Shown one piece after another: positions 6,641 to 12,038 of a DNA stretch of 12,038 nucleotides. The notes beneath the pieces were generated by a model. It had not been told where the DNA came from and did no database searches. It worked only from the letters and a program-made list of their open reading frames with translations. Made by a program: the position numbers and the translations under genes. The DNA comes from a virus (taxonomy: Duplodnaviria; Heunggongvirae; Uroviricota; Caudoviricetes): IMG/VR virus record IMGVR_UViG_2568526312_000023; one strand, written 5' to 3'. Within the stretch, counting starts at the first letter, position 1. Each line of letters begins with the position of its first letter.

Positions 6641-6913
6641 TTATCTGTCCTGGTAATTTCGCCATATTTCATCACCAGCACCATCCATACCCATTTCGGC
6701 ATAAGTGCGATCGACCGCCTTTTTCAGGTCTCCGTAATTATCCGGCGGCTCCGGTGGCCTCTGTGCCTTCCTGGAACATTCCAGCCGTCGCATCGTAACC
6801 TGATGCCGTTCCTTGTCTGTCTCCACCAGTTGCATGACTTCACCCCATCGCGCCGACGCTCTCCGGTAAAAGCCTTTCGCCTCCAGTTCTTCCGCTATGC
6901 GGTCATGTACCAT
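6641..6913 (-). CDS. PerC-family-like small transcriptional activator (putative late-gene activator)
   Basis: 90 aa from ATG at 6911-6913 (GGGGTGGGGA SD). N-terminal DRIAEELEAKGFYRRASARWGEVMQ resembles the PerC/Pch family motif (..LE.KG.WRRAA.RW..) as I recall it. Located directly upstream of the head operon leader. Confidence 0.55.
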   Translation of the reverse strand: MVHDRIAEELEAKGFYRRASARWGEVMQLVETDKERHQVTMRRLECSRKAQRPPEPPDNYGDLKKAVDRTYAEMGMDGAGDEIWRNYQDR

Positions 6914-6925
6914 CGTCCCCACCCC

Positions 6926-11129: not shown

Positions 11130-11314
11130 TAATGCACCTCTTTTAATTCATACACTGCTGAAATAATGACTTGTGATAAGCCATATTCTGATGATTCGCT
11201 TCTCACCGCAGCAATAGCCGTCTGAACATTAACAGCCTTCACATTCTGAGCGATACCAATTGTGTGGCCTAGTGGGTTAACAGCGCTGGCAAATACACGG
11301 AAGGTTTTAAGCAT
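11129..11314 (-). CDS. Hypothetical protein (61 aa)
   Basis: ATG at 11312-11314 embedded in the upstream gene's 3' end (ATGCTTAA overlap). No motif recognised. Confidence 0.45.
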   Translation of the reverse strand: MLKTFRVFASAVNPLGHTIGIAQNVKAVNVQTAIAAVRSESSEYGLSQVIISAVYELKEVH

Positions 11315-11507
11315 GGCACACCCCCTGACGAATACGAGCGGCGAATACCATCACGCAGCCAGCCGGAGATTGCTGGCGCGCTTCCTGTTCGCTGGTGGCC
11401 TCGATGGTAATCACGCGCGGCTGTGCCGTGCTCAGGGCGATAAAACGCCAGATGTATTTATTCAGGTTGTGCGAGTCCCGCCCTTGCGGGTGTGTGGTAT
11501 GATTTCT
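11307..11507 (-). CDS. Icd-like protein (P4 Icd-type cell-division-inhibitor family)
   Basis: 66 aa from ATG at 11505-11507 (GAGGT SD). YIWRFIALSTAQPRVITIEATSEQEARQQSPAGCVMVFAARI matches the Icd-like pattern (FIW.F.A...P....I.A.SE.EAR.....FAARxP) as I recall it. First gene after the operator-bearing promoter. Confidence 0.55.
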   Translation of the reverse strand, partial: RNHTTHPQGRDSHNLNKYIWRFIALSTAQPRVITIEATSEQEARQQSPAGCVMVFAARIRQGVCHA

Positions 11508-11607
11508 CATAGCTACCTCGATACTTTCGCTATCGTTGGTTGTTAGACGCCCTGCATGTGTTGCGAGCACTGTAGGGCGTTGCTTAATTTGAGTGACAAA
11601 ACTCAAA

Positions 11608-11690
11608 CTGTGCGCACAGATTAAAATCATGTGTGCGCACATGTCAATACTTAACATCTCATTTTTTTTGCTGTATTGTGTGCGCCCATA
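11608..11690. promoter_or_regulatory. Divergent promoter region with three TGTGCGCACA-type operator palindromes
   Basis: Perfect 10-bp palindrome TGTGCGCACA at 11609-11618 and 11632-11641, and a degenerate copy TGTGCGCCCA at 11679-11688. Minus-strand promoter candidate: -35 TTGACA (11642-11647), 16-nt spacer containing the second palindrome, -10 TTTAAT (11620-11625) adjoining the first. The third copy lies 28 nt upstream of the ribbon-helix-helix gene start. Confidence 0.55.
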
Positions 11691-11715
11691 AAGTCCATTT
11701 AAGTGAGGTGCATCA

Positions 11716-11913
11716 ATGTCTAGCGGTAACACAAACAACAAATCAGCAAAGAAAAATATTCGATTCCCACATGAGCTTATAGATGGGATTGATGCCAGCG
11801 TTGAACAAGAAAAATTAACTAATCCTAGTGCTAATTTTTCCGCATGGGTCTTAGATGCCTGTGGACGCAAATTAAAATATGAACAGCGCCGCAAGGCCAA
11901 AGAGCAGGAATAG
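11716..11913 (+). CDS. Arc/Mnt-like ribbon-helix-helix DNA-binding protein (putative repressor)
   Basis: 65 aa. Strong SD GAGGTG 5 nt upstream of the ATG. KNIRFPHELIDGIDASVEQEKL...NFSAWVLDA fits the Arc motif N-[LI]-R-[WF]-P-x-E-[LV]. Divergent from the early operon. Confidence 0.7.
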   Translation: MSSGNTNNKSAKKNIRFPHELIDGIDASVEQEKLTNPSANFSAWVLDACGRKLKYEQRRKAKEQE

Positions 11914-12001: not shown

Positions 12002-12030
12002 GGCGACCGCCACAGGTCGCCTTTGTTTTA
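12002..12030 (+). terminator. Putative rho-independent terminator downstream of the ribbon-helix-helix gene
   Basis: GGCGACC-GCCACA-GGTCGCC hairpin (7-bp stem) followed by TTTGTTTTA on the plus strand. Confidence 0.45.
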
Positions 12031-12038
12031 TGTGTCAT

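Follow-up and report, generated by a model that had tools for sequence, protein, structure and literature searches.

A predicted ribbon-helix-helix repressor and its operators as the probable control switch of a capsid-forming phage satellite of Escherichia coli

The window analyzed here, a whole stretch of 12,038 nucleotides from IMG/VR record IMGVR_UViG_2568526312_000023, is a satellite of Escherichia coli of the capsid-forming phage-inducible chromosomal island (cf-PICI) type. A 208-bp intergenic region separates its leftward early operon from the divergent gene ylcI, and we read this region as the control switch of the satellite and, from comparison of sequences, the YlcI protein as the operator-binding repressor of the early promoter, giving both statements a probability of about 0.8. 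Computation finds repeated sites in a fixed register with the promoters, covariation between these sites and YlcI, a ribbon-helix-helix (RHH)-like fold predicted for YlcI, and a structured plus-strand RNA with its own promoter and terminator. From these patterns we infer that YlcI binds the sites, and likewise the sign of regulation, its stoichiometry, and a link to induction by helper phage.

Two exact copies of TGTGCGCACA lie at 11609-11618 and 11632-11641, with 0.03 expected by chance per window, and 0/200 dinucleotide-preserving shuffles of the window contain two or more. Within the 12 kb, a single further copy, TGTGCGCCCA (11679-11688), differs by one mismatch, and two-mismatch copies (12 versus 7.5 expected) are at the chance level. 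An earlier description made from the letters of this DNA (here, the sequence-only reading) had pointed out two perfect palindromes in the spacer and at the -10/start region of an early promoter, a third, degenerate copy upstream of a small divergent gene, and that gene itself. All of these are where it placed them, and the third copy overlaps the end of the TATTGT -10 of the divergent gene. The same reading called the early promoter near-consensus, which is right for its -35 hexamer but not for its -10 or its spacer. The elements of the region are as follows.

11608-11619: operator O1, CTGTGCGCACAG, a perfect 12-bp palindrome that overlaps the last 2 nt of the early -10 and the predicted transcription start.
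11618-11623, minus strand: -10 of the early promoter, TAATCT, matching 3/6 consensus bases, after an 18-nt spacer, in a register conserved across loci.
11631-11642: operator O2, GTGTGCGCACAT, in the spacer of the early promoter, its last base being the last base of the -35 hexamer.
11642-11647, minus strand: -35 of the early promoter, a perfect TTGACA, directly adjoining the second palindrome.
11651-11679, plus strand: ylcI promoter reported by the promoter scan, TTAACA-17-TATTGT, with the -10 at 11674-11679.
11678-11689: operator O3, GTGTGCGCCCAT, one mismatch from O2, overlapping the last 2 nt of the ylcI -10.
11716-11913, plus strand: ylcI-like gene of 65 amino acids (aa), the sole plus-strand gene, YlcI/YnfO (DUF3950) family, encoding the predicted RHH repressor.

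An 80%-identical direct repeat of O1 and its flank inside ylcI (11859-11878) matches only 7/12 operator positions, and we regard it as chance. Directly downstream of the predicted early start, an inverted repeat (TTTGAGT-GACAAA-ACTCAAA, 11589-11608) would fold into a stem-loop at the 5' end of the early mRNA; in other loci, small inverted repeats of other sequence occupy this place.

Using an alignment of 36 YlcI homologs, we collected 100 loci, of which 45 come from reference genomes and 55 from IMG/VR contigs that are mostly 10-20 kb long. Their hosts are Enterobacterales, Orbales (Gilliamella and Orbus) and, for one genome, Pasteurellales. In those loci whose flanks could be compared, int and an AlpA-like gene again stand on one side, and the other side has Icd-like genes and a primase or DUF927 helicase. 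Upstream of ylcI, the same three-site architecture is found throughout these ~100 loci. O2 is a 12-mer, GTGnnn/nnnCAC, abutting GTCAA (TTGAC on the minus strand) in 97/100 loci; the distance from O1 to O2, center to center, is exactly 23 bp; and O3 overlaps a TATnGT hexamer ~30-38 nt upstream of the ylcI start codon, with a perfect operator copy at this third site in three loci (L008, L009, and L063).

The promoter register is equally fixed. The early leftward promoter is absent from the output of the simple promoter scan, and a -10 at a 16-nt spacing (TTTAAT) was rejected, since it lacks the key A at position 2 and its register is not conserved in other loci. At the 18-nt spacing, TAnnnT is found in 57-60/60 loci (T1 in 57/60, A2 and T6 in 60/60 each), its last two bases belonging to O1, and the -35 reads TTGAC(G/A) in 65/71 nonredundant loci, a count that partly follows from how the anchor was constructed. 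The ylcI -10 has the form TATnGT in 56-58/59 loci, and its last two bases fall within O3. Thus, the proposal that the palindromes are operators within the early promoter is supported by their fixed register with TTGAC(A/G) and TAnnnT, and that of possible autoregulation by a third site on the repressor's own -10 in nearly all loci. The sequence-only reading had also advised looking for the palindrome in host and helper genomes; as to copies of the pair in helper phages, in a scan of 2.9 million viral contigs, two copies of TGTGCGCACA at the window spacing occur solely beside a YlcI homolog with Lys12, and ten pairs at other spacings are unrelated. Loci of one operator class, TTTAAA (L011, L017, L021, L022, L027, L037, and others), have in addition to O1-O3 a fourth operator at about -76 from the ylcI start, directly across the -35 hexamer.

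Between loci, the outer GTG/CAC of the operator is conserved, and the six central bases vary; examples of this core are TGCGCA, TTTAAA, CACAAA/CATATA, TGAACC, TGTAGA, TCCGTA, and CGGCCA. The mean distance between O1 and O2 is 2.4/12 positions within a locus versus 4.8 between loci. The core tracks residues 12 and 14 of YlcI: KxN goes with TGCGCA, Y/FxG with TTTAAA, TxG with CA(C/T)A(A/T)A, KxH with TG(A/C)ACC, and RxD with TCCG(C/T)A. In a partial Mantel test controlling for the rest of the protein, operators correlate with residues 12/14 (r = 0.57, P <= 2e-4), and in the reverse test, with the rest of the protein against operators and residues 12/14 controlled, r is 0.06 (P = 0.08). Among pairs whose remaining YlcI sequence is near-identical (distance <0.15), the operator distance is 1.0 when residues 12/14 are the same and 4.4 when both differ. 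Together with the RHH-like predicted fold, this covariation supports the divergent protein as the likely binder of the palindromes, as the sequence-only reading had supposed.

The palindromes could instead be bound by another factor, such as the AlpA-like helix-turn-helix (HTH) protein whose gene is next on the right, the Icd-like product, or a host protein, with YlcI a mere neighbor. Two points speak for such a binder: PHROGs phrog_6196 labels the Icd-like family a transcriptional repressor, and published work has AlpA required for induction of Gram-negative PICIs. However, a fixed host factor is excluded because cores differ within one host clade. The first early gene adds little beyond residues 12/14 (partial r = 0.12, P = 0.0003, weak although nominally significant), and identical first genes occur with different operators, as in L017, L033, and L035, which also differ in their sheet residues. 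AlpA-like genes beside operators of the window class are <=34% identical or undetectable. We therefore consider another binder improbable, and YlcI remains the preferred one.

A GTG...CAC within a hairpin at 11547-11580 was tried as a fourth operator of the window and ruled out, since its core does not track operator class. Two genomes, Serratia sp. Ag1 (L003/L006) and Xenorhabdus kozodoii (L028/L033), have two YlcI cassettes each, of different operator classes; in this very small sample, the difference is consistent with mutual orthogonality of coresident satellites.

The 65-aa protein belongs to the YlcI/YnfO family (NF041551; 59 bits with a cutoff of 30, E value of 3.5e-16), and it also matches PF13132 (DUF3950; 28.3 bits with a cutoff of 25) and phrog_949 (E value of 9e-28), which PHROGs labels as of unknown function. 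In its motif S-A-K-K-N-I-R-F-P, residues 12 and 14 are variable, and K13, I15, R16, F17, and P18 are invariant or nearly so. The predicted DNA-reading strand comprises approximately residues 12 to 17 (K12-K13-N14-I15-R16-F17), with I15 and F17, conserved hydrophobic residues, on its opposite face. AlphaFold2 with the family alignment, run as a monomer, gives an unstructured N terminus, a helix at 19-35, and a helix at 41-64 (mean pLDDT of 77), which, as a model, is how an RHH monomer appears before dimerization. The predicted fold is read as the strand-helix-helix topology of RHH proteins in a domain of ~45 residues. Base reading by alternate strand residues, another RHH hallmark, is suggested by the 12/14 covariation, the invariant R16, and the conserved GTG/CAC, and three repeated, mostly palindromic sites are consistent with RHH dimers predicted to bind cooperatively. 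A Foldseek search with the YlcI model returned nothing useful.

Arc reads bases with three residues, Q9, N11, and R13. An hhalign comparison places YlcI 10-27 on Arc 7-24, so that K12, N14, and R16 fall on these three; the E value with Mnt is 0.14. The modeled fold and the recognition register are thus supported, and this much of the earlier label Arc-like stands. Membership of YlcI in the RHH sequence family, the other sense of that label, is unproven, and it went undetected in the profile comparisons described below.

Several observations weigh against YlcI as the repressor at the center of the switch. The Arc alignment, although in the expected register, is not significant (E value of 0.013, probability of 3%); the family hidden Markov model has no match among PDB sequences at an E value of <=10; and the sole weak Pfam match of the YlcI profile is to the HicB antitoxin family (HicB_lk_antitox, E value of 0.22, not significant). 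Nothing on the function of YlcI, YnfO, or DUF3950 was found in the literature searched. Part of the covariation could stem from linked cassettes being inherited together. With its weak -10 and 18-nt spacer, the early promoter seems to be of modest intrinsic strength and may require an activator, such as AlpA, as well. Finally, the prototype island EcCIEDL933 functions without ylcI; therefore, the switch is not essential to the satellite lifestyle.

The conserved 18-nt spacer, the weak -10, and the dyad operator in the spacer would also suit a YlcI that activates, realigning the -35 and -10 across an overlong spacer in the manner of MerR. We think this very unlikely. O1 covers the end of the -10 and the start, and O3 covers the -10 of ylcI itself, positions that are typical of repression; RHH regulators of such geometry (Arc, Mnt, CopG, and omega) are repressors. 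Moreover, ylcI is divergent from the early operon and convergent with alpA and in this resembles an immunity gene.

Since the first early gene is of the Icd-like family, YlcI might alternatively be an antitoxin or neutralizer paired with an Icd-like inhibitor, the palindromes serving only conditional autoregulation of the pair. Type II toxin-antitoxin systems have an adjacent, cotranscribed toxin gene, whereas ylcI is the sole plus-strand gene, divergent from the Icd-like gene and followed by a terminator with no downstream partner, as in all related loci. The operator-bearing promoter drives the whole replication and packaging operon, and YlcI has only a short charged tail and no extra C-terminal toxin-binding domain. 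The antitoxin role appears about as implausible as activation.

Least credible is that the palindromes act as nucleic acid hairpins, for example, as a weak terminator of read-through from alpA. The terminator scan did flag 11643..11628 on the minus strand, CATGTGCGCACACATG followed by ATTTTAAT. However, many classes have nonpalindromic cores (for example, GTGTGAACCCAC and TGGTATTCAC), which are incapable of forming hairpins, and still keep the sites at the same three positions; moreover, the divergent promoters have the third copy on their far side.

Besides the operators, the region contains a second conserved element, opposite the early leader, which lies within the interval covered by the sequence-only reading but is absent from it.

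11498-11503, plus strand: candidate antisense RNA -10, TATGAT, with a TG before it at 11495-6; TAnnnT is invariant or nearly so in alignment A2.
11510-11592, plus strand: candidate cis-antisense RNA of ~80 nt, composed of hairpin A and terminator hairpin B.
11510-11545, plus strand: hairpin A, carrying the anti-Shine-Dalgarno sequence CCTC at 11516-11519.
11546-11581, plus strand: hairpin B, which with its T-rich tail forms the terminator.
11307-11510, minus strand: Icd-like gene of 67 aa, first gene of the early operon, with its ATG at 11510 (NF033153, E value of 1.4e-19).

The TAnnnT hexamer is near-invariant although it lies inside the coding sequence of several unrelated N termini. Downstream of it, all loci keep a GC-rich inverted repeat (11547-11580 in the window) whose arms show compensatory changes, and the pairing depends on the strand: 96.3% of hairpin cells are paired on the plus strand versus 83.5% on the other, with 190 G-U pairs versus 7 A-C on the plus strand and many A-C mismatches on the early-mRNA strand. 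A T-rich tail follows on the plus strand, TTGCTTAATTT in the window and TTATTTTT in most loci. Because of the A-C mismatches on the mRNA strand and the G-U pairs and T-rich tail on the plus strand, this hairpin is assigned as a plus-strand terminator, and the same features rule it out as a stabilizer or attenuator of the early mRNA. In most loci, the loop of the preceding hairpin is an anti-Shine-Dalgarno sequence and its 5' arm contains the start-codon complement; in the window, the 5' arm instead carries the anti-Shine-Dalgarno sequence, and the predicted 5' end of the RNA has the complement of the start codon (11508-11510).

RNAalifold gives 22 pairs for 65 loci, 17 of them with compensatory changes. 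In the pair-count control, 0/500 shuffles are as good on all five measures, and sliding the partner by 1-3 columns leaves 35-44% pairing. The plus-strand RNA of the window folds at -32.4 kcal/mol (z = -4.3), compared to -22.2 (z = -2.6) for the other strand. A scan of the whole window against Rfam (E value of <=1) had no matches, so the leader hairpins are not C4 or another known RNA family, and the literature searched has no report of an antisense RNA associated with Icd in satellites. The element is best read as a putative cis-antisense RNA that would oppose translation of the Icd-like gene. EcCIEDL933-type islands, which lack ylcI, also have this RNA element.

The switch appears to be exchangeable. 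In strains 10671, MB41-1, and Al Ain, the body of the window is found at 97.9% identity and ends at 11552; beyond this point (L102 1100-1660), these strains have a YlcI allele of 101 aa, Q-L-N-A-R-F-P, whose cassette has three nonpalindromic copies of TGGTATTCAC in the same layout as in the window. Position 11552, a recombination breakpoint, lies inside the terminator hairpin. The window cassette is 99.6% identical in O157:H7 F6321, joined there to an island whose primase differs and whose structural region is smaller. At least 80% of the cassette is held by 41/5426 complete E. coli genomes. These mismatches of cassette and body between strains, and the existence of islands without ylcI, identify the switch as an exchangeable cassette. 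One of the latter, in O157:H7 ATCC 35150 (L103, EcCIEDL933-type, 1276-1420), keeps the two-hairpin/terminator RNA upstream of icd; just past the RNA element, inside an annotated 247-aa hypothetical gene, it has two GGTGACCAC repeats 34 bp apart, which may be operators of another regulator.

The satellite itself is recognized by its gene set. cf-PICIs are islands of ~10-20 kb with int, alpA, a primase or helicase, and their own HK97-type capsid, protease, portal, connector, and terminase genes, and without tail and lysis genes. In the window, all long open reading frames (ORFs) other than ylcI are on the minus strand and include a structural and packaging set (TerL, TerS, HNH, head-tail connector, head completion protein, portal, S78 protease, and HK97-type capsid) and genes for a PerC-like protein, a single-stranded-DNA-binding protein (SSB), a DUF927 helicase, a DUF4222 protein, three small ORFs, and the Icd-like protein; no tail genes were found within the 12 kb. 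The Icd-like gene is followed on the same strand by the small ORFs, DUF4222, the DUF927 helicase, SSB, PerC, and the capsid and packaging genes. Related E. coli loci have, in order, int, a hypothetical gene, and an AlpA-type excisionase/regulator gene, all three leftward, then the rightward ylcI, and icd with the rest leftward; int and the AlpA-type gene stand just past the position of the window's right end. The gene set is that of a cf-PICI. The window body shares 97-98% identity with islands of O157:H7 and other E. coli strains, and 97% with the EcCIEDL933-type islands of O157:H7. An intrinsic terminator lies 3' of ylcI:

12002-12031, plus strand: terminator from the terminator scan, GGCGACC...GGTCGCC followed by TTTGTTTTAT.

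The same scan found no minus-strand terminator between alpA and ylcI. The annotations of 11307-11510 conflict, NCBIfam naming it host cell division inhibitor Icd-like and PHROGs (phrog_6196 and phrog_1743) transcriptional repressor. Between the replication and capsid modules, 6641-6922 encodes a PerC family protein (E value of 1e-43); a PerC homolog of an E. coli PICI represses the LEE virulence genes (PMC11773190).

The logic of the switch resembles that of P22 immI and of Stl/Str of the Staphylococcus aureus pathogenicity islands (SaPIs), and it belongs to neither family. P22 immI comprises the RHH repressors Arc and Mnt, the divergent promoters Pant and Pmnt, and the sar antisense RNA. Shared with it are a small RHH repressor, predicted here, with operators inside divergent promoters; three alternating sheet residues at matching positions; autoregulation, which we infer for YlcI; and a short antisense RNA, a candidate here, directed against the ribosome-binding site of one gene of the operon under repression. 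In contrast to P22, there is no significant sequence similarity, the window has three 12-bp operators at a 23-bp spacing rather than a single 21-bp operator, its one repressor gene stands against two, and the target is a replication and packaging operon of a satellite rather than an antirepressor gene. As in the SaPIs, the repressor gene is divergent from the early operon, lies between the integrase and the replication/packaging sides, and presumably holds the island inactive as long as no helper phage is present. However, Stl is a large HTH repressor inactivated by specific helper proteins and is not homologous to the 65-aa predicted RHH protein, and Gram-negative islands also carry alpA, published as the inducing activator. 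With immI of P1/P7 (c4-icd-ant), a looser parallel for the RNA than sar of P22, the window shares an Icd family gene in first place and a small structured RNA from the same region that would oppose translation, but c4 comes from the same strand and acts on upstream targets, whereas the window RNA, without an Rfam C4 match, is a candidate true cis-antisense RNA.

YlcI of DLP12 and YnfO of Qin in E. coli K-12 and the homologs in lambda and Stx phages belong to the same protein family, NF041551. Unlike ylcI of the window, the phage copies adjoin cos and terminase genes and not a divergent early control region. YlcI homologs are found in 153 phage records, mostly of lambda-like and Stx phages. The 64-aa lambda homolog is 43% identical and contains NIRFP and NFSAWV; it (MSTKNRTRRTTTRNIRFPNQ...NFSAWVIEAC) is encoded, unannotated, on the minus strand near the right cos end at 1110-1304 of L104 (J02459), which is lambda 48109-48303.

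In the mechanism that we propose, YlcI dimers would insert an N-terminal two-stranded sheet (K12-F17) into the major groove of the 12-bp operators GTGnnn/nnnCAC, the invariant Arg16 reading the outer GTG/CAC and the variable residues 12 and 14 reading the variable core. With O2 and O1 both occupied, RNA polymerase would be blocked at the leftward promoter, which is expected to drive the Icd-like gene, the replication genes, and the capsid and packaging genes; occupation of O3, over the repressor's own -10, would give negative autoregulation. The antisense RNA probably base pairs with the early mRNA around the Shine-Dalgarno sequence of its first gene and would silence transcripts that escape repression. 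The switch may also control induction of the satellite, the role that the sequence-only reading gave it. Published work describes AlpA as necessary for Gram-negative PICIs, the cf-PICI prototype among them, and the helper phage as the trigger of AlpA expression. How YlcI would be removed at induction is a matter of speculation: convergent transcription from alpA through ylcI is one option, and a helper-encoded antirepressor is another.

A wider proposal, which we hold tentatively and with some doubt, is that a large subset of Gram-negative PICIs and cf-PICIs have YlcI-type proteins as their master repressors, in at least 10 mutually orthogonal "immunity" classes. Here, residues 12 and 14 would form a two-residue code that fits the operator core, recombination would swap the cassettes, and every class would go with a cis-antisense RNA, giving a bistable switch of two layers. 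Induction would then need helper-specific removal of YlcI, and the lambda and Stx homologs beside cos could cross talk with satellite operators.

An RHH repressor with operators in divergent promoters is a known kind of switch. Compared to the literature searched, in which no RHH repressor of PICIs was found, what is new is the predicted assignment of the YlcI/YnfO family to sequence-specific RHH repression, the apparent two-residue match of protein and operator across at least 10 classes, and the combination, predicted in both parts, of a repressor layer and an antisense RNA in Gram-negative PICIs. These results propose a function for the widespread DUF3950 family, whose members include two y-genes of K-12, ylcI and ynfO, and a lambda ORF that carries no annotation. 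The table of covariation links two sheet residues to operator bases and could be used to design orthogonal repressor-operator pairs. Many Gram-negative PICIs, including cf-PICIs that move between species, would carry a repressor layer where current models invoke AlpA alone, and the specificity classes suggest that satellites sharing one cell avoid cross-repression.
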